Source: Planctomycetota bacterium
Lineage (GTDB): Bacteria > Planctomycetota > UBA1135 > UBA2386
NCBI GenBank assembly: GCA_046290465.1
Contig: JBKAGP010000001.1
Span: 1,600,001-1,664,000, forward strand
Reading direction: 5' to 3'
DNA length: 64,000 nucleotides
Positions 15,932 to 27,216 of this stretch are shown piece after piece. Made by a program: the position numbers and the translations under genes. The first letter of the stretch is position 1, and each line of letters begins with the position of its first letter. The notes under the pieces were generated by a model. The model made no database searches. It saw only the letters and a program-made list of their open reading frames with translations, and had not been told where the DNA came from.

Positions 15932-16437
15932 GCGCGCACGCTCGCTTCGATGGCAGCTGCCCGATTCGCACGGCGACCGCACCGATTGCAGGATCTCGGC
16001 GTGAGCGTACCACAAGGCAGCGTACTATCCGGTCTCTTGGCGATCTCTACGTGGCTTCGTTCGACCGAGCGATGCAGGACCGCTCCTTCGAGATCTACCA
16101 TCGAGTTCGTCGCCGGCATTCAACCGCTTGCCTCGTCGACTCCGTAGCGACGCGGGAGTAGCAGGCAGGCTGCGCCCGGACAAGCCACATCAGCGATGTC
16201 CGAAGAGCGTCAGGATCAGTGCGAATGGGACCATTCAGTCCGCACACGTGCTGGCCGCGTCACGAAACACCCAAACCGCGAGAAGCGGAGGAGAAGAAGC
16301 CCATGGGAGAGTGCTGTCGCGAGCATTGGCAACGGCCTTGGCACTTCCGCGTGACCGCCCATCAGGCGACCACCGTAGGTGACCCTGCGCGCGACCGATG
16401 GACCTGAACTCGCTCGCTGTCACAGACCGCCCTATGA

Positions 16438-16542
16438 GAGCCACTCCGGTTCGCCCAAGCGGAGCCACCGCCAGTTCGGCCAAACGGAGCCAGGCCAGTT
16501 CGGCAGAACGGAGCCACCCTGGTTCGGCCAAGCGGAGCCACC
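16438..16542 (+). repeat. IS21 left-end subterminal repeats (4 x 24-25 bp, GAGCCA...GTTCG...CG)
   Basis: Read directly; inverted copies at 17521-17544 and from about 17626 to the right end. Confidence 0.85.
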
Positions 16543-16635
16543 TGTGACGGGTTGAGCCGGAAGCGAGTCTGGAACTGGGTGAGCCCCCTGCCACCCGGGA
16601 TCTTCGAGGAATCACTTACCCCCTCGAGGAACCAG

Positions 16636-17149
16636 ATGGGCAGGAGGCTCAGCATGCATCGTCTACAAGATCTCGTCCGACTCCACCGCGAAGGCGTCCC
16701 CGGCCGCACGGCGGCCCGCCTTCTGAAGATGGGGCGCAACACGATCGCCCGCTACACGAAGGCGCTGTCGGCGGCCGGCCTGCTGAGCGGCGACCCGAGA
16801 GACCTACCAGCCATCGAGGAGCTTCGCGCCGCGGTCGACGAACACGCGCCGCCGAGCACGCCGCCGCAGCAGAAGTCATCGATCGAACGATGGCTGCCGA
16901 TCGTCGATGCAAAGTCCGACGAAGGCGTGCCGCCGACGGCGATCTTCGACTTCCTTCGGCTCGAGCACTCGGACTTCGCGGGCAGCCTGTCGGCGATCAA
17001 GCGCCGCTGCGCGGCCCTGCGCCGCGAACGCGGCGTGCAGCCAGGCGAGGTGACGATGCCCGTCGAGACGGCGGTCGGCGACGTCGCGCAAGTCGACTTC
17101 GGCTACGTCGGCAAGCTCTACGACCCCGAGTCGGGCAAGGAAAAGAAGG
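16636..17149 (+). pseudogene. istA: IstA transposase, N-terminal fragment
   Basis: MHRLQDLVRLHREG HTH; GDVAQVDFG (first catalytic Asp) followed by an abrupt break. Confidence 0.85.
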
Positions 17150-17521
17150 CACCGCGCGTGTCGCGCTGGCTACTCGGTGCTCTACGTCGCCGCGCACGAG
17201 ATGCTGACCAAGCTGCGCGCGTCGCGAGCCGACGGCAGCTACGACCGATGCCTCGCCAAGTTTGCGAGCCCCGACCTGCTGATCATCGACGATCTCGGGC
17301 TGCGACCGTTGGAGAACGACGAGCCCATCGACCTCTACGAGGTCATCCGGCAACGCTACGAGCGCGGCGCGATGATCGTCACGAGCAACCGTGCGCTCGA
17401 GGAATGGCCGCCGCTCTTCGTCGATGAGCTGCTCGCCAGCGCGGCGATGGACCGCGTGCAGCACCATGCCCACGTCGTCGTCATCGATGGGCGGTCTTTC
17501 CGCCAGCCGCGGAGCGCGTAG
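17150..17521 (+). pseudogene. istB: IstB ATPase, C-terminal fragment
   Basis: HRACRAGYSVLY, DLLIIDDLG, IVTSN, AAMDRVQHHA..GRSFR; Walker A missing. Confidence 0.85.
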
Positions 17522-17676
17522 TGGCTCCGTTTGGCCGAACTGGGCGTGATTCCTGCCGAACGCGATCAGGCTTCTGTGCCAATCCCGAAACGTCGCCTGT
17601 GCCAGTCCGAATCCGGCTTCGAGAGGTGGCTCCGAATGGCCGAACTGGGGTGGCTCCGATCAGGCGGTCCTTGACA

Positions 17677-18150
17677 CCGGTCTTCTCCGCGGCGATCAGC
17701 TGCGAGCCGCTGCCGCTGAAGGGCTCGTAGACGATGTCGCCCGGCGACGTGTGCTTGCGAATCGGGCGCTCGAACAGCTCCGTGGGCTTCGCGGTTGGGT
17801 GCTCGGCCCCGGTGCTGCGTGCCTTGCCGTCGAAGTCGACCTCCAAAACGGAGTCGTGGTCGTGAACACCGTCGTGCTCCGGCTGGTCGCCCTTGCGCCA
17901 TCCCATCACGCAGGGCTCATGGCGGAAATGCCAGTAGACGAGACCGAACACCGACGCCGGCTTCACCCAGATGATCTGCTGGTGGTCGAGGATGCCGAGC
18001 TCACGCCAGATGCGCTGAAGGTCGCCGCTGCGCTTGTGTGCGTGCCAGCAGTAGATGGCGGCCTTCGGGCCGAGCACGTCGAGCACGTTGGCGAACACCG
18101 CATGGAAGAACGCCTCCGGGTCCTTGATCGACACCCCGTCGTAGCGGTCC
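17677..18150 (-). pseudogene. N6/N4 DNA methyltransferase fragment cut by IS21
   Basis: QIIWVK, HPTAKP, VYEPFSGSGSQLIAAEKTG then IS end; no DPPY-containing N-terminus; left boundary approximate. Confidence 0.8.
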
Positions 18151-18360
18151 CATCGTAGCAGAAGCTGCCGCACGCAGAACAGTGGGCCCAACGTTTGCCA
18201 ACCCGCTGTGAACGAGAGCCCACGTCTCTAAACTCGGCGCAAGCCGTAGCTCCACCTGTTGACAGTGCTCCGAACGACCGAGATCGCAAGCTGGGCCGCG
18301 TACGCGTCAGCTCTCACCGCAGGCACGATTTTGTGCAAACCGCCCCCCGAGGCTGAAACC

Positions 18361-18876
18361 ATGGAGATGATGATCAAGGTCATCGGGCTCGTTGCTGGCA
18401 TCGCAACGGCCGGAGGCACCATCGCGGCCGCCTACTTCGTCCTCTTTCTTGGTAGGCGACAACGCGAAGACACGTGGCAACGTCACCTGTCCGAGATTCA
18501 CCAGCTCTTCTGGGATAAGGACCCCGACAACGCCAAAGTACGAATGTGGATCGCGGCGCCGACGCTCGGCTCACCACTCGGGGCCGAGCTCTACAACGCT
18601 CTTCACGTGAGGAGGCACACGCCGAAGAAGATCAGCGCCGAGGACTACGCTCGAATCGACAAGCTGGATCGGTTCTTGAATGCGTTCGTCAGGGTATTCG
18701 TTTTCATCGAGGAGACTCCTGGGCTCAAGCTGACGTCAGCCCACCTGATGCTGGAGTACTGGGCGGGACGCCTGATGGGGCTCGACGAAGAGGGCAAGTG
18801 CGTCCAAGAAGATCTCAACTGGTACATGCGCGAGTACTTCCCCTCGATCGCAAGAGGGCACAAGTTGCTGACCTAG
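18361..18876 (+). CDS. Hypothetical protein, one N-terminal TM segment plus helical domain
   Basis: Hydrophobic VIGLVAGIATAGGTIAAAYFVLFLG; start uncertain. Confidence 0.6.
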   Translation: MEMMIKVIGLVAGIATAGGTIAAAYFVLFLGRRQREDTWQRHLSEIHQLFWDKDPDNAKVRMWIAAPTLGSPLGAELYNALHVRRHTPKKISAEDYARIDKLDRFLNAFVRVFVFIEETPGLKLTSAHLMLEYWAGRLMGLDEEGKCVQEDLNWYMREYFPSIARGHKLLT

Positions 18877-19264: not shown

Positions 19265-19300
19265 ACCGTTCCCCGAGGAAGTTGTTGGCGAACCAACGAC

Positions 19301-19368
19301 TGGTAGCGGGGATGGGTGGTGATTTGAGTCGGGTGGTAAGGTGGGATCATTTGCGCTGGACAGCCTGA
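19301..19368 (+). repeat. Distal att site plus alternative recombinase tail 1
   Basis: Core identical to tRNA 3' end; continues in recombinase frame as VAGMGGDLSRVVRWDHLRWTA*. Confidence 0.8.
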
Positions 19369-19396
19369 GCTGTGAGACCGGCGCCACCGCACAGCA

Positions 19397-19927
19397 TCAA
19401 GTTGGTGGACGAACGGAATCAGAGACCGCACGTACCGTCATGTACCACCCGTTTAGCAGAAGCCCTCGCACCCAATGGACTAGAGCCATTCGCTTGCGAG
19501 CCTTCACTGCATGAGCAGCCACCTCAGGATCGCTATCCTGCGTTGCAACCGACTTCTGAGGGCACGCTTGGGTGTCACCAGCATCCGCTGGACCTTCGGT
19601 TTCACGGGCTCCCTCGGAACGCGAGGTAGATTCAACACCTTCACTGGCCGAGTCGGATTCACTCGACTCTGCCTGCTCATCGAGCGCTTCGTCCACAGCC
19701 TCGTGAACATCCGTCTCTAACTGCTCGTCAGGCGATAACGATTCTTCGGCATCAGCCCGCGTATGGACATGCTTCTGGACGATGTAGATGTGCGAAGCAT
19801 CGTCGAACGAATCTGCAACTTGCTCCAGAAGGCGACTGTTGTCACCAGGATCTCTAGACGTCAGAACCAGAGTGATTCGACGATTTTTCCTCGTTCGGCG
19901 ACGAGGCCTTTGCGGCTGCTCACTCAT
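19397..19927 (-). CDS. Hypothetical protein
   Basis: 176-aa ORF coupled to upstream gene by ATGA overlap. Confidence 0.5.
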   Translation of the reverse strand: MSEQPQRPRRRTRKNRRITLVLTSRDPGDNSRLLEQVADSFDDASHIYIVQKHVHTRADAEESLSPDEQLETDVHEAVDEALDEQAESSESDSASEGVESTSRSEGARETEGPADAGDTQACPQKSVATQDSDPEVAAHAVKARKRMALVHWVRGLLLNGWYMTVRAVSDSVRPPT

Positions 19928-20715
19928 CGTTTGACTCCCCGGGGAGAGCCCGCCTGGCTTTCTGAGTCGATTCGCCTCACACGAAGACCACTTCCTCCTG
20001 CAGCACGATGATAGGCGTCTGCGCGCCTTGTCATCTCAACGATAGCCTGACGCACTTCGTCGTCGGACAAGCCGTCCGGGACCTGCATCTCAAGCACTAG
20101 CTCATCGCCAAACTCCTCCGACTCCTCTAGGACAAGATCTAGCTCAGACTCCGGCCAGCCCTCCGGTCGAACCAACGGCCACAGATCGCCTAGGGCTTTC
20201 ACGGGTGCAGTGTCCACACCCCAACCACACGCACCATGAATCTGTCGGGCTGCGGCGATGTCGGCTTGCATCGTCTGGCGAATCGCCGCAGCAGCATCAC
20301 GCGAAGCGGCCCATGCGAAAGCAGCCTCCTCGGCGGCCACACCAACCGCCCTGAGCTGTGCCTCGATCTCGGACCGATTCCTGCCATAGCTGTCCCCGGC
20401 GCACAACTTGATAGCGCGGGCAGCTGCTTCAGCGGCCCTTCCGATAGAGGCGTCACGAATAACGCCAGTCCAATGGCCTGCATCAACCGGGGCGCGGAGC
20501 TTCTTGCGCAGTTGATAAGCACGGCTAATCGCCTGCTCAGCGGCCTCTGGGCCCGGATCGGCGCAGTAGCGCAAGCAAGACTCAAGCACGCCCGATGCAA
20601 GACTACGTACGCCTTGCGAATCAGCGAGTGACAACAGACGCATCACGCATCTCGTCGCAACGGCGACGACGCCCATTGCGGGAACCGACCCTAGGTCTTT
20701 GTACATGAACCCCAT
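19924..20715 (-). CDS. Hypothetical Ala-rich helical protein
   Basis: 263-aa ORF, LGDLWP..PEGWP segment; no family recognised. Confidence 0.55.
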   Translation of the reverse strand: MGFMYKDLGSVPAMGVVAVATRCVMRLLSLADSQGVRSLASGVLESCLRYCADPGPEAAEQAISRAYQLRKKLRAPVDAGHWTGVIRDASIGRAAEAAARAIKLCAGDSYGRNRSEIEAQLRAVGVAAEEAAFAWAASRDAAAAIRQTMQADIAAARQIHGACGWGVDTAPVKALGDLWPLVRPEGWPESELDLVLEESEEFGDELVLEMQVPDGLSDDEVRQAIVEMTRRADAYHRAAGGSGLRVRRIDSESQAGSPRGVKR

Positions 20716-20899
20716 CCTTGCTGTTGGCAGCGAGCCCGAAAAGCGGGCAGTCCGGTCATCCTAGCCCAAGAGCGCGAGCTTCACAGGCAGCCCAACCTGT
20801 ACGCGACGATCTCCTGCATGAGAGTCGCGGACCCAACAGTCGGTCCTTGGGAGGCGCCCGGTCCACGTACCTCGACAGCTTTGGCGGACCCAGCTTCGC

Positions 20900-20961
20900 T
20901 AGCGGGGATGGATGGCGACTTGAGTCGGGCTCGCTATCGGCGGATAGCATGGACGCCATAA
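20900..20961 (+). repeat. Second att-like copy plus alternative recombinase tail 2
   Basis: 20900-20929 matches 19304-19333 at 27/30; reads AGMDGDLSRARYRRIAWTP*. Confidence 0.75.
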
Positions 20962-21155
20962 CCCATCTCCTGCAAGAGTCTTCCACACACGCGAGACGAT
21001 CCAGCCCAGTTGCGACACAGGACGAAGCGCGGCGAGCCGCCATTCTGGCAGCATATCGGGGACCCGACTGCCAACGCGACACGCTCGGACAGCATCCGCC
21101 GCAGAGCAAGGAGCGGCACACCCGTTGCTTGGACGGCGCCGAAGGAACGGCAGCA

Positions 21156-22175
21156 ATGGAGACAGCAAACGACTACATCGCGGAGATCCTCCGCCAGATC
21201 GAACCCGATTCTGAAGTCCTCGCCGAGGCTCGGACGCGACGGGATCTCGTCGCAGCGAAGGCAATGTCACTTCGCGGGACCCTGCGACAGTACTCCTCCG
21301 GAAGCGTCGCCCACGGAAATGTAACAGCACCCATCAATGATGCAGATGGCGGCATCGTGCTAGACCGGCGCATTCACACCAAACTGGGACCGGAGGGCGA
21401 CAATGAAGGCCCAGAGAAGGTCATCGAGGAGCTGAAGGAACTCGTAGGACCCAAGATTCGGGCCAAGTACTCCAAAGCTCGCATTTCGACATCTCGACGA
21501 GGCCTCCTGGTCACATTTGGCAGCCCCCTTAGCGACCAAGACCCTTCGGTCGATATGATTGTCACGCTCACCCGCAAGAAGGGCGATGGTCTTTGGATTC
21601 CCAATCTAAAATCCAACACGTGGGACGCCTCCCATCCGGAGCAACACACAGATCTATTTACGTCCGGAACCACGACACTTCGCCAACAACGCTCGACGAT
21701 CACCCGACTCGCCAAGGTCTGGAATAAGCAGTTCACCAACCCAGCGCTCTCGTCGTTCAATGTTTCATCCCTGGCCTGGGAACTGATCACAAAGACAAAC
21801 TCCGACACAGCCGAGGCGCTCCAGGAGTTTTTTGCACTGTCCGCCCAGGCAATTGGCCAAAACAACACCAAGGATCCTGCGGGCGTATCCAGTTCCATCC
21901 GCCTGCTGCAAAGCCGGTCCATTGCGGTCAGAAGACTCCAATCAGCTGCACGTTCCCTTGAGAAGGCAATTTCCTCCAAGGATCCCAACGGAATACAAGA
22001 GTCGATGGCAGCCGTCTTCCACCATTACGTTGACCCGCCGGCTTCGAGCAAGGCTGCATGGGCGGCGGCCTTCAGAAACAAAGATAGCTCCGTTGGCGTT
22101 ACGGCTTCAGGCCTCGCAATTGGTACAGGCGAAACGCTGAAGTCCACCAGGTCTTTCGGAGGACCTGCAGAGTGA
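21156..22175 (+). CDS. cGAS/DncV-like nucleotidyltransferase (CD-NTase/SMODS)
   Basis: SGSVAHG..PINDADG (GS + DxD), third Asp in PSVDMIV, LWIP..W..SHP, RLAKVWN, SSF, DPAG; C-terminal tail ..RSFGGPAE. Confidence 0.82.
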   Translation: METANDYIAEILRQIEPDSEVLAEARTRRDLVAAKAMSLRGTLRQYSSGSVAHGNVTAPINDADGGIVLDRRIHTKLGPEGDNEGPEKVIEELKELVGPKIRAKYSKARISTSRRGLLVTFGSPLSDQDPSVDMIVTLTRKKGDGLWIPNLKSNTWDASHPEQHTDLFTSGTTTLRQQRSTITRLAKVWNKQFTNPALSSFNVSSLAWELITKTNSDTAEALQEFFALSAQAIGQNNTKDPAGVSSSIRLLQSRSIAVRRLQSAARSLEKAISSKDPNGIQESMAAVFHHYVDPPASSKAAWAAAFRNKDSSVGVTASGLAIGTGETLKSTRSFGGPAE

Positions 22176-22615
22176 AGTTTCGCCGGGTCTCGGGACCATG
22201 GTATGGACGCGACAGAGAGCGCATCTCTTTCGAAAGAGGCACTCGCAATTATGATCACATCAGCGCAAGGACCATTGCAAAGGTAGGCAGAGAATACAAG
22301 GTCACAATCTCTGTACCGCACTACCAATCACGCGGCGTCACGATCATGTTCCGCAAGAACTCCCCCGAGACGCCACGCGTGTTCGTTGACGGCAAGAAGG
22401 AAGAATCCCCTCACCGCTACGAGGACGCCACGCTATGCATGTGGCACCCAAAAGATCCTCCCGAGAAGCGCTGGACGCGCTCGGACGGCCTCCTCCACCT
22501 CCTCGGACACATTGAGGCCCACCTATTCAAAGAAGAATGGTGGCGCGAGTCGGGCGAATGGCTCGGCGCGGAAGCACACCACAACGGCGCCGAACGGAAG
22601 GAGATGCACAGTTGA
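22172..22615 (+). CDS. Stand-alone prokaryotic E2 (short type II CBASS-type)
   Basis: PRVFV..SPHRYEDATLCMWHP..W..HLFKEEWWRESGEWLGAEAHH; GTGA overlap with the cyclase. Confidence 0.8.
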   Translation: MKFRRVSGPWYGRDRERISFERGTRNYDHISARTIAKVGREYKVTISVPHYQSRGVTIMFRKNSPETPRVFVDGKKEESPHRYEDATLCMWHPKDPPEKRWTRSDGLLHLLGHIEAHLFKEEWWRESGEWLGAEAHHNGAERKEMHS

Positions 22616-23115
22616 CAGACATCCTAGAGTCAAGCATAACTCCGGCGATAATAGCCGGATCCGTTTCACTGATCGTGGCAATCGCAGCCAACCGGAAGTC
22701 ACTACAAGATCGCCAGCGCGCCCTAGTTGCTGAAGCATTCTCGGCGATTACCGAATACCGTGAATACCCCTATATTGTCTATCGGCGCGACAAGCTCAAG
22801 AAGGAAGAAGAACGCACTCGCATTTCGAGCGCTCTAAGCACTCTCCAATCCCGCATCAATAGCCTGCAAGCGCAACTATTCGTCGAGACGCCCTTCATAG
22901 CAGATTCCTACAAGAGCTTAGTCGCCGCCACGCGCAAGATCGCTGGCCCCGCCATCAAAATGGCGTGGGATTCCGAGCCTGCTGGATGTGACGCCGAAGT
23001 GAGCACATCAGCCTACGACACCACACAACTAGAGAAGCCGGCACAGCGGTTCCTAAAACAAGCGCGTCGAAACTTCGGGTGGGTTCCAAACTGGGTCTAC
23101 TTCTTGTGTGATTGA
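22612..23115 (+). CDS. Putative effector: single N-terminal TM plus helical domain
   Basis: TTG start overlapping E2 stop, AAGGAG at 22598-22603; TM ITPAIIAGSVSLIVAIAA; EYREYPYIVYRR segment. Confidence 0.65.
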   Translation: MTDILESSITPAIIAGSVSLIVAIAANRKSLQDRQRALVAEAFSAITEYREYPYIVYRRDKLKKEEERTRISSALSTLQSRINSLQAQLFVETPFIADSYKSLVAATRKIAGPAIKMAWDSEPAGCDAEVSTSAYDTTQLEKPAQRFLKQARRNFGWVPNWVYFLCD

Positions 23116-23135
23116 TCCTCGAACGTGCGGGGAGC

Positions 23136-23224
23136 ACCCCGCAGCTCCGTCGCCGTCAGCGTCGGTCACACCCGAAGGGAGCGGAGCGGATTGACCGATG
23201 CTGACGGCGATGGAGCTGTGGGGT
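23136..23224 (+). other. 33-bp-stem hairpin (candidate single-strand origin or structured RNA)
   Basis: Arms 23136-23168 and 23192-23224; the three deviations are all G-T; loop contains GAGCGGAGCG. Confidence 0.7.
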
Positions 23225-23292
23225 CCCCCGTAGCTCTTGAGCCGGAGGCCGAGGGAGCTTGACAGCTCGCCTACCACCACGATCCTCGACGC

Positions 23293-24054
23293 GTGCAGGA
23301 CGAATCGCGCGTAGCCGCCTGGGGCCGGGGTCGAGACGAGGAGCTTGTCCAACTGGCACTCGCTGTCTTCAGCAGCGCCGACGAGACGATCGCCATCTTC
23401 GGCGGGGAACCGGCCCCATCGACGCCACCTGACGGGTCGCACCTCTCGTTCTACCGCGACCACCGGCGCCTCATGCGCCTCATGAGTCAGATGGCAGAAC
23501 CTCCGCACAAGCCGCAGGACAAGACGGACGCCGTCCGCTTCCTGATCGAGATCTGGATGCGCTGCGTCTACGCCTACCTGATCACCCCCGGAATGCTCCT
23601 CCGTGCCGCGCGCCAGGGCGAACCAAAGGCGCTGGATGATCTGCTTCGCCTCGACAAGGCGGCCATCTGCGAGCCACGAGTTGCCAAGCAACTCGTCGCC
23701 ATCTTCGACCGCGGGCGACCAGCTCTCAAGAAGCGCATCGCCGCAGCTCTGAAGGGCAGACCGACGCTCCCGCCACGCAGGACGCTGAAAGCTCGGATGG
23801 CAGGCCTGGTCATCGCGATCATCAACGAGGACGAGAGGTTCGTTTCTCGCGGTGTCGAGGCACCGACGCCGAGCGAGTTGCGCGACCTCTTCGACGCCAT
23901 CGCCCAGGACGCGGACCAGCAGCAGCCATGCGATAGCGACCTCCCTGAAGGTGACGACGCGTGGCGAAAGGCAGTTCAGCGAGCTCGCTCCGAACTGCGC
24001 CCGTTCGTGCGCCTCGCGATCGACCACCCGCTCCGGACAAGAGTCGCACCGTAG
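23293..24054 (+). CDS. Hypothetical protein of the element backbone
   Basis: 253-aa ORF with high-GC codon usage, co-oriented with rep and recombinase. Confidence 0.6.
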   Translation: MQDESRVAAWGRGRDEELVQLALAVFSSADETIAIFGGEPAPSTPPDGSHLSFYRDHRRLMRLMSQMAEPPHKPQDKTDAVRFLIEIWMRCVYAYLITPGMLLRAARQGEPKALDDLLRLDKAAICEPRVAKQLVAIFDRGRPALKKRIAAALKGRPTLPPRRTLKARMAGLVIAIINEDERFVSRGVEAPTPSELRDLFDAIAQDADQQQPCDSDLPEGDDAWRKAVQRARSELRPFVRLAIDHPLRTRVAP

Positions 24055-24352
24055 TTGTCCGGACGCATGTGGCGGCCATGGGGAACGTCGCCCCCATGAC
24101 GCACAACATGCGAAGGCGGCAGCGCGCAGGCGCCGCAACCCGTCCGGGCGACTCAGCCCGGGCGGTTGCGGCTCCTACCGCTGCCGGTTCCACGACCTGG
24201 GCCATCCTGGCCACGACCCTCGACGGGCCAACGGTCTGCATCCACAGCATCCGCCGGATCCTGACGTCGATGCTCTCCCGCCGCCTCGGGCGCCTGGCGA
24301 GCCTGCGACCGTTCGCACGCCCGCGACGCGGCGCACCGACCGCTGCAGCCAC

Positions 24353-24376
24353 ACCCCCCTCTGCTAACAGGGGGGT
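24353..24376 (+). promoter_or_regulatory. Putative oriT/dso nick-site hairpin ACCCCCCTCTGCTAACAGGGGGGT
   Basis: 8-bp stem with GCTAAC in the loop, 6 bp before the rep ATG; resembles MOBT/Rep_trans nick sites. Confidence 0.75.
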
Positions 24377-24382
24377 TGAAAC

Positions 24383-25437
24383 ATGATCGCCACAGAACGG
24401 GGCGACGGCGGATTCGAGGATCTCGGGCTCACCCAGATCCGCATCTCGCTCGACGCGCTCACGGTTTCGCTCACCGAGTCCGAGGTCAGCGAGATGTTCG
24501 GCAAGATGATCGAGGCCGTCAGACGAACGGGATGCAACACCCTGCCAACGATGGGGCGGCCCTGGCGCGACTTCCGCAAGACGCAGCGCTACGGGCTCTC
24601 GACGCTCAACGAAGGCGCGCAGTGGTACCGCAAGTACGATCCGCAGCAGCTCGCGCCCACCCTCGGCAGCGACTACGAGTCCTGGGAGGTCATGGGCCCC
24701 GCAGCGCGCATCCTCGCCGACGTGCTGAAGTCGGCGCCCGTGCATGTCGGGCGCGCTTCACGCCTCGACGTCGCATTCGACTTCGCGTGCGAACCTGACC
24801 TGTGGCCCGCCGCAATCGAGGACGCGATCTCCTTCCACTGCGAGCACCACGGCTTCCACATCCACTACCAGGGCGAACGGGAGAAGCGCACCGTCTACGT
24901 CGGCTCGCCCAAGTCGGAGCGGCGCGTTCGCATCTACCGGCACGACCTCGCGCACGGTGGCGGCCTCCCGATCCTGCGCGTGGAGGTAGAACTCCGGCGC
25001 AAACACGCGGCCGAAGCCTGGAGACGTTGGTGGCCGGGCGGCGGACCAGCCATCGGCCTCTGCGCGGGTCACATCGAGCAGATGACCGGACGCGCCGTCT
25101 TCGTGGACGAACTCACCTACCCCGCGCCCGCCCCTGGCCGCGACGTCGATCTGATCGAGACCTCGGCACACGGCACCACCCAGTACGGAGGCGCCTTCGA
25201 GGCCCTTCTCCGCGCGGGCGTCGATCTGACCGCCCTCGTCCGCGACGTGCGCGAGCTGCAGCTCTCGGCGAGCGGAAAGCGGGTCCGTGAGCACAAGATG
25301 CGGCGCCTGCTCGCATCCGTTCGCGGCCTCACGCCCGAGCAGATCGCCTCAGCGATCCTGGGCTCGATCCGCGCGCGCATCCGCCAGCGCTTGCCATCCA
25401 ATCCGACCGGACCTAGCGTCCGGCCCGGAGACCCTGC

Positions 25438-25441
<4 letters not shown>
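24383..25441 (+). CDS. Rep_trans / MOBT-family rolling-circle initiator or relaxase
   Basis: SRLDVAFD, TVYVGSPKS..RIY, RVEVELR motifs. Confidence 0.8.

Positions 25442-27216
<1,775 letters not shown>

Follow-up and report, generated by a model that had tools for sequence, protein, structure and literature searches.

A type II-short CBASS with a catalogued 1TM effector as the best reading of a three-gene locus on a planctomycete tRNA-Met island

Does a small membrane protein encoded behind a nucleotide cyclase and a lone E2 enzyme represent a new kind of antiphage effector? The question is raised by positions 21156-23115 of a window of 64,000 nucleotides (the whole stretch of DNA that was analysed; contig JBKAGP010000001.1 of the Planctomycetota bacterium assembly GCA_046290465.1), where three genes follow one another on the plus strand. 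A sequence-only reading had taken them for a short type II system of antiphage signalling based on cyclic oligonucleotides (CBASS), with an E2 and neither E1 nor JAB, and had placed the third gene (gene 3) in the effector slot as an unrecognised and possibly new effector family. The best reading of our results is an intact E2-only (type II-short) CBASS that carries a catalogued '1TM' effector on a 7.9-kb island, and the locus is a further copy of that catalogued system. We put at about 0.92 the probability that the locus is an E2-CBASS in which gene 3 is the effector. PADLOC calls the cyclase, the E2 and the 1TM effector; these three profile matches uphold the assigned system type, and the claim of a new family fails.

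The third gene and its operon

Gene 3 (22612-23115, plus strand; 167 aa, TTG start) was matched by two PADLOC profiles of the CBASS class 'Effector 1TM', PDLC00666 (E = 8.8e-22, spanning profile positions 22-155 of 174) and PDLC00665 (E = 7.9e-15). The family comprised 390 related clusters at 50% identity, and all 104 relatives that we aligned, out of the 150 clusters listed, matched the 1TM profiles as well. These matches rule out gene 3 as an undescribed effector family. The class is named in the DefenseFinder rule text (PMC9090908) and in a CapV paper (PMC12480259), and a figure legend in bioRxiv 10.1101/2022.04.27.489752 credits it to Millman et al. 2020. The further suggestion of an undescribed receptor stands in part: the effector class already has a name, but no characterised sensor domain was recognised in it, as gene 3 matched no Pfam or NCBIfam family at cut-off and its model was all-helical. 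A Pfam search over the 104 family members likewise found no family in common. In the literature covered, the 1TM family was the subject of no functional or structural study, although one may exist among subscription papers, most of which lay outside that coverage.

The protein has a single hydrophobic stretch (residues 8-26, Kyte-Doolittle mean 2.03) followed by an Arg-rich juxtamembrane helix. Its AlphaFold2 (AF2) model (predicted local distance difference test score, pLDDT, 94; predicted template modelling score, pTM, 0.84) was composed of helices at residues 2-50, running from the transmembrane (TM) segment to a conserved motif, and at 61-92, 94-120 and 138-155, in agreement with the earlier description of one N-terminal TM helix and a helical body. 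The model contained no strand of three or more residues and is therefore without a beta-containing sensor domain of the Cap15 or Cam1 type. Because basic residues follow the TM segment, the positive-inside rule suggests that the helical body is cytoplasmic rather than periplasmic. The near-invariant residues of the family were R34, A42, Y49, E51, R58, R59, Q79, E92, L103, G112 and W119, and the conserved motif was Y49-x-E51-F/Y-P-Y-x-x-R-R58-R59 (Y-x-E-F-P-Y-x-x-R-R-R). The conserved residues are thus arginines and aromatics rather than residues of a catalytic type, and no Lys was conserved across the family.

Wider searches with gene 3 returned little. In PDB and BFVD, nothing resembled the fold of its model at E ≤ 0.001, and no CARF, SAVED, STING or Csx23 appeared among the 50 VIA matches listed, which does not exclude them. 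The family profile found nothing under E = 0.03 among PDB sequences, a word-based search had its own record as the sole match, and no relative was found in annotated phages. Complex prediction with two 1TM copies and c-di-AMP scored 0.00 in two runs, weighing neither way.

The first gene (21156-22175, plus strand; 339 aa) encodes a nucleotidyltransferase of the cGAS/DncV-like type (CD-NTase), which matched PADLOC PDLC00777 (E = 2e-115) and Pfam SMODS above cut-off. We found 582 homologues, of which 120 were listed and 40 aligned; S48-G49-S50, D62, D64, D133, S159, H164, R332 and G335 were invariant in the 40, and the GS and D-x-D...D active site noticed earlier is intact. The cyclase tail, KSTRSFG335/GPAE (the slash marking the putative cut), is likely the E2 processing site. 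A loose form of the tail pattern occurred in 119 of the 120 listed homologues, and residues 298-335 look compatible by eye with a C-terminal helix and three-stranded sheet that bind E2. The nearest solved sequences were 6p8u, 6p82 and 6p8j (E about 2e-19), labelled 'nucleotidyltransferase' and presumably P. aeruginosa CdnD, followed by CdnD- and CdnC-labelled entries, and the cyclase appears to resemble CdnD/CdnC-type enzymes more closely than those of clade G. Its identity to 57 GTDB relatives was at most 46%, and a quick tree put it on a long branch without a supported sister, for which reason we name no donor. A single-protein locus scan using the cyclase found nothing, and no relative was found among viral contigs.

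The lid of the cyclase bears on its product. The motif S159-H-P-E-Q-H164 aligns with T-D-P-E-I-H of 6p8u, and a Ser at this lid position means a purine donor. The spacing of S159 and H164 is that of the GTP-contacting S167 and Y172 of SmCdnG as given in PMC12948482. On the strength of these lid residues and the rule for Ser, the product would be a purine cyclic di- or trinucleotide.

The second gene (22172-22615, plus strand; 147 aa, GTG start) encodes a stand-alone E2 of the ubiquitin-conjugating (UBC) fold, matching PADLOC PDLC00867 (E = 7e-42). The top fold match of its AF2 model (pLDDT 88) in both searches was the S. marcescens CBASS E2 (8hsb_B: Z 9.7, root-mean-square deviation (rmsd) 5.2 over 133 residues; 8yjy_B: TM-score 0.59), and other UBC-fold proteins came after it. 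H81, C89 and H117 were invariant in 124/124 aligned sequences and H137 was conserved in 99%, which bears out the PHRY..LC signature read from the sequence. This His/Cys/tail-His arrangement resembles H87/C101/H152 of the Serratia enzyme SmE2, the correspondence being one of pattern and not of alignment to SmE2. According to bioRxiv 10.1101/2022.05.25.493364, C101 and H87 of the Serratia E2 cut the cyclase behind a Gly and form a link with it, while H152 is regulatory and K159 accepts an isopeptide. No E1 or JAB was present in the three-gene operon, and the flanking open reading frames (ORFs) gave no such PADLOC match. Cyclase and E2 were fused in frame at five related loci (L111:1357-2853, L156:1328-2824, L131 and L135:3209-4705, L064:2968-4485), and four of these five natural fusions have the junction motif TR[SA][YH]GG, in resemblance to a ubiquitin precursor fusion. 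Because these four retain the Gly processing motif at the junction, the fused E2 may cut itself free as a ubiquitin precursor does.

The three genes overlap by GTGA (cyclase-E2) and TTGA (E2-gene 3), and a purine-rich stretch lies about 9-11 nt ahead of each start, so that the proposed translational coupling is borne out by the ORF coordinates. The cassette is also more AT-rich than its surroundings, as had been noticed: its GC content was 56%, whereas the window as a whole stood at 69% and the genome at 70%, and third-position GC was 59-69% in the cassette genes compared with 85-90% in the adjacent rep and recombinase genes. TTG is the best-supported start of gene 3, judged from sequence comparison, because the alignment of its homologues begins at the TM helix and continues onward, and because an ATGA, GTGA or TTGA overlap joins E2 and 1TM genes at 84/129 related loci. 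In the public gene call the protein begins only at residue 22, with most of the TM helix missing; the family is hidden because gene callers clip this helix off the window copy. A consensus scan found no sigma-70 promoter and no plus-strand terminator.

Gene 3 was tied to cyclase and E2 homologues elsewhere. Metagenome loci were found through the cyclase (the best 80 of 290), and after 20 of the 80 with less than 1 kb downstream were left out, an E2 and then a 1TM gene followed the cyclase in 60/60. From the other side, 71 GTDB loci were found by a DNA pattern for the 1TM motif; with 3 chance matches and 3 loci with less than 1.7 kb upstream left out, E2 and cyclase were present upstream in 61 of 65. 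A profile search covered 401 genomes from the phylum of an actinobacterial match, one positive being the centre genome itself, and yielded 12 loci in 11 genomes, with a cyclase at 12/12 and an E2 match at 11/12. The cyclases at these 12 loci fell to four profiles (PDLC00777, 00779, 00823 and 00798). At one locus (L178:2-2280, minus strand) the 1TM gene comes first and is followed by an unrelated cyclase (PDLC00798); after that cyclase stands a cut ORF, E2/Cap2-like by eye and with no PADLOC match at 1e-10. Pairing with four cyclase profile families, once in the leading position, is as would be expected of a swappable effector.

Named family matches came mostly from Actinomycetota and Dehalococcoidia (Chloroflexota). 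In the window's own phylum, 0/400 other sampled genomes had a real match, and one weak match covered the TM end only, in a 1739-aa frame. Searching plasmids with TyrRS yielded no taxonomic clue. Recurrent upstream neighbours of related cassettes were ImmA/IrrE peptidases (39 loci), helix-turn-helix (HTH) proteins and sigma-like regulators, which stand ahead of the cyclase at L083, L085, L042, L063, L080 and L147, for example; the window cassette has no ImmA/IrrE, HTH or sigma-like regulator upstream. At one locus (L149:2658-5961), 1TM gene and cyclase lie on opposite strands with an HTH and an ImmA gene between them and no E2.

Proposed mechanism and rival explanations

What we observed is the identity of the genes, their conserved catalytic residues, the linkage of the three and the ends of the island; from there we infer the later steps as follows. 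By analogy with Serratia, the E2 (C89/H81) would clip the cyclase after G335 and keep it bound through a thioester or an isopeptide, and chaining of the cyclase, driven by infection, would switch synthesis on. Upon infection the cyclase would then make its purine cyclic di- or trinucleotide. The 1TM protein, by analogy with Csx23, Cam1 and Cap15, may form an inner-membrane oligomer with its N-terminus outside and its C-terminus inside; in its cytoplasmic helical bundle, a conserved Tyr/Arg cluster (Y49, E51, Y54, R58, R59 and W119) would bind the nucleotide. As the TM helix runs on into helix 1 without a break, ligand binding would move the TM helices, and this shift would depolarise the membrane and arrest the infected cell. 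We regard the complete chain, from the E2-processed cyclase through a purine nucleotide and 1TM binding to membrane damage, as moderately probable.

A more specific proposal concerns the effector itself, and we consider the case for and against it evenly balanced. The 1TM protein would be an all-helical nucleotide-receptor fold undescribed for that job, a bundle continuous with a single TM helix, chemoreceptor-like but facing the cytoplasm, that uses Y-x-E-F-P-Y-x-x-R-R-R to read a purine cyclic nucleotide. No CBASS membrane effector would be smaller, and in this actinobacterial branch of E2-CBASS it would be the main one, perhaps derived from TM-plus-helix cargo of plasmids or prophages such as KilB and Redi gp32.

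Several observations weigh against the reading of an E2-CBASS with a nucleotide-gated 1TM effector. Most studied E2-CBASS cyclases belong to clade G (74% according to PMC12948482), whereas that of the window is CdnD/CdnC-like. The E2 family profile found no match among PDB sequences, and a Lys in the E2 tail (K143 here) was present in 66/108 family members, so the Serratia chemistry may differ in this E2 family. The best fold matches of gene 3, four-helix histidine-kinase and chemoreceptor sensor domains (Tar/NarX-like; Z 9.7 with an rmsd of 3.1 over 114 residues and 7% identity), tie with unrelated bundles and lie inside the generic helical-bundle range, and no charged pore residue is evident in the TM helix. 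Four of the 65 1TM loci stood without an adjacent E2-cyclase pair: in one the 1TM copy is frameshifted and next to a transposase, in another it is short at the N-terminus, in a third the cyclase lies on the opposite strand, and the fourth is an intact orphan 1TM gene (L141:2788-3375). Finally, close kin make up many of the linked loci, and the linkage counts are therefore not independent.

Rather than receiving the nucleotide, gene 3 might serve the cyclase as an anchor in the membrane, as a sensor or as an acceptor of conjugation, with the signal acting on another target. This is unlikely in our judgement, even if translational coupling to the E2 at 84/129 loci and the likeness of a TM helix plus helical bundle to sensor domains would suit it, and PMC11153139 describes a type II cyclase of B. 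cereus conjugated to the membrane-associated PspA. Against it, no CBASS effector profile stood among the matches listed for 54 ORFs downstream of the cassettes, a sample from 88 distinct loci that had sufficient DNA; several were restriction or Hma genes, and the recurrent neighbours were the upstream regulators. The family also lacks a conserved Lys to accept conjugation, and the 1TM gene pairs with unrelated cyclase families and leads in L178.

A second alternative reverses the sign of the signal: a constitutive nucleotide, as in Panoptes-style signalling, would silence a toxic 1TM protein until phage depletes the nucleotide. Such an arrangement is favoured by the toxicity that small TM-plus-helix proteins, KilB among them, can have on their own. 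Inhibitory systems with membrane effectors are also on record in PMC12657218 and PMC12657230. The intact orphan 1TM gene speaks against constant silencing, and the window encodes a full CD-NTase with a putatively E2-processed tail, which bioRxiv 10.1101/2022.05.25.493364 presents as an activation device in Serratia; we hold this alternative to be quite improbable. An equally low probability attaches to the idea that gene 3 binds the nucleotide and then blocks a host membrane machine rather than opening the membrane, for although one small-residue TM helix is thin pore material and look-alike architectures occur in KilB (Atlas score 0.91) and mycobacteriophage Redi gp32 (TM-score 0.55), homology to KilB is not established, the spread of the family over Actinomycetota, Chloroflexota and the window's unrelated phylum fits host-independent action, and the single-TM proteins Csx23 and Cam1 act on the membrane itself as reported in PMC11014256 and PMC10808066.

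The island at tRNA-Met

The type II-short CBASS reading places the cassette on a mobile element, and the sequence-only reading had expected a small one. A large serine recombinase (25438-27183, plus strand), with Resolvase, Recombinase and Zn-ribbon domains above cut-off, reaches into a tRNA-Met(CAT) gene (27140-27216, minus strand; ARAGORN and Rfam), the integration site, and its C-terminus is read off the reverse strand of the 3' half of the tRNA. The cassette is situated downstream of this tRNA gene. At the other end, the left attachment (att) junction (19283-19312, plus strand) consists of a 12-nt copy of the tRNA-Met 3' end at 19301-19312 preceded by host flank. The stretch 19283-19312 was identical in 28/30 nt to the DNA just past tRNA-Met in three of the nine relatives' loci examined (L167, L169 and L170). 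Given the 12-nt tRNA repeat and the match of the left junction to the relatives' post-tRNA sequence, the island therefore spans about 19313-27152, or 7.9 kb, which bears out the small mobile element expected.

A second att-like copy (20900-20929, plus strand) lies 256 nt upstream of the cyclase start and is identical in 27/30 positions to 19304-19333. The sequence TAGCGGGGATGG occurred at only two sites of the genome on both strands, namely the 19304-19333 and 20900-20929 copies. The second copy suggests a 6.2-kb inner unit, or else a tandem or nested insertion at tRNA-Met. The two copies, 1.6 kb apart, bracket two orphan minus-strand ORFs (19397-19927 and 19924-20715) of no family.

Other features of the island lie downstream of the cassette. 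An 89-nt near-perfect inverted repeat (23136-23224) begins 20 nt past the 1TM stop and precedes the next island gene; its hairpin (-94 kcal/mol, z = -10, with 0/200 shuffles as stable) is single-copy in the genome and had no Rfam family at gathering score. It may be a terminator, or a replication or transfer origin of the Rep_trans element. It is followed by a 253-aa ORF (23293-24054, plus strand) with no Pfam, NCBIfam or PADLOC match at cut-off, and by a Rep_trans-like replication initiator (24383-25441, plus strand), whose PF02486 match (E = 9e-6) is below the gathering score. Just outside the island, 16415-18191 holds what remains of a transposase, its inverted ends repeated, together with part of a DNA methylase; a closer full relative of this methylase is encoded at another place in the genome (84% identity across 190 aa). 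Between this remnant and the left junction lies a 205-aa ORF of no family with a hydrophobic stretch (18259-18876).

Comparison with known systems

The locus is ordinary to defence-finding software, and no new effector family was discovered. The 1TM class, with at least 390 sequence clusters and a model without any characterised sensor domain, is nonetheless a ready test case: its ligand-binding mode may be new, and identifying the ligand would add a new nucleotide-receptor fold. The window system would also test the clade G-derived E2 chemistry on a CdnD-like cyclase.

Gene 3 also resembles KilB of the Streptomyces plasmid pIJ101 (PF27072), its top named Atlas family (score 0.91, 160-172 shared features), which is similar in size and in its TM helix, Arg-rich juxtamembrane helix and helical body. 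Compared with pIJ101 KilB and 120 homologues, gene 3 gave an hhalign probability of 45% (reversed control, 15%; 30 block shuffles, no more than 10%), and the best E in cross-searches of hidden Markov models was 0.008; the profile match is confined to the TM and adjacent helix (residues 6-51), so homology is not established, and the Y-E-F-P-Y-R-R-R motif is absent from KilB. The top viral fold match to the 1TM model was Redi gp32 (L161:6263-6820, the gene being assigned by length; TM-score 0.55, E = 0.07), rejected as a homologue since the likeness is of architecture only (hhalign probability 1.7%). Redi gene 32 lies between lysis genes and the integrase, beside a HicA-like toxin. The second viral fold match, an HP1 int-C1 region protein, was likewise one of architecture only.

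Among signalling effectors, Csx23 and Cam1 of type III CRISPR combine, as described in PMC11014256 and PMC10808066, an N-terminal TM helix with a small cytoplasmic proposed sensor and act on the membrane. The sensor is a CARF domain in Cam1 and a cA4-binding fold of its own in Csx23, whereas the soluble part of 1TM is an all-helical bundle; the 1TM family profile gave no sequence link to either in PDB. The CBASS TM effectors Cap13-Cap16 (as presented in PMC10419184) share with gene 3 the membrane-located effector slot.

The nearest characterised E2 system is Serratia SmCdnG-SmE2 (PDB 8HSB/8YJY; PMC12948482 and bioRxiv 10.1101/2022.05.25.493364), which likewise has a lone E2 of the same fold with the His/Cys/His pattern, a conserved Gly near the cyclase C-terminus and natural cyclase-E2 fusions. 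The two differ in that SmE2 and the window E2 share 16-19% identity in structural alignments, the tail Lys is not conserved in the window family, the window cyclase is shorter (339 aa) and CdnD/CdnC-like by nearest sequences, and the effector family is a different one. The closest counterparts overall are the other type II-short CBASS with a 1TM effector (PDLC00777, PDLC00867 and PDLC00666/00665): the window copy is divergent from them, with cyclase identity of at most 46% and no upstream ImmA/IrrE, while its three-gene content is the same and its architecture identical.

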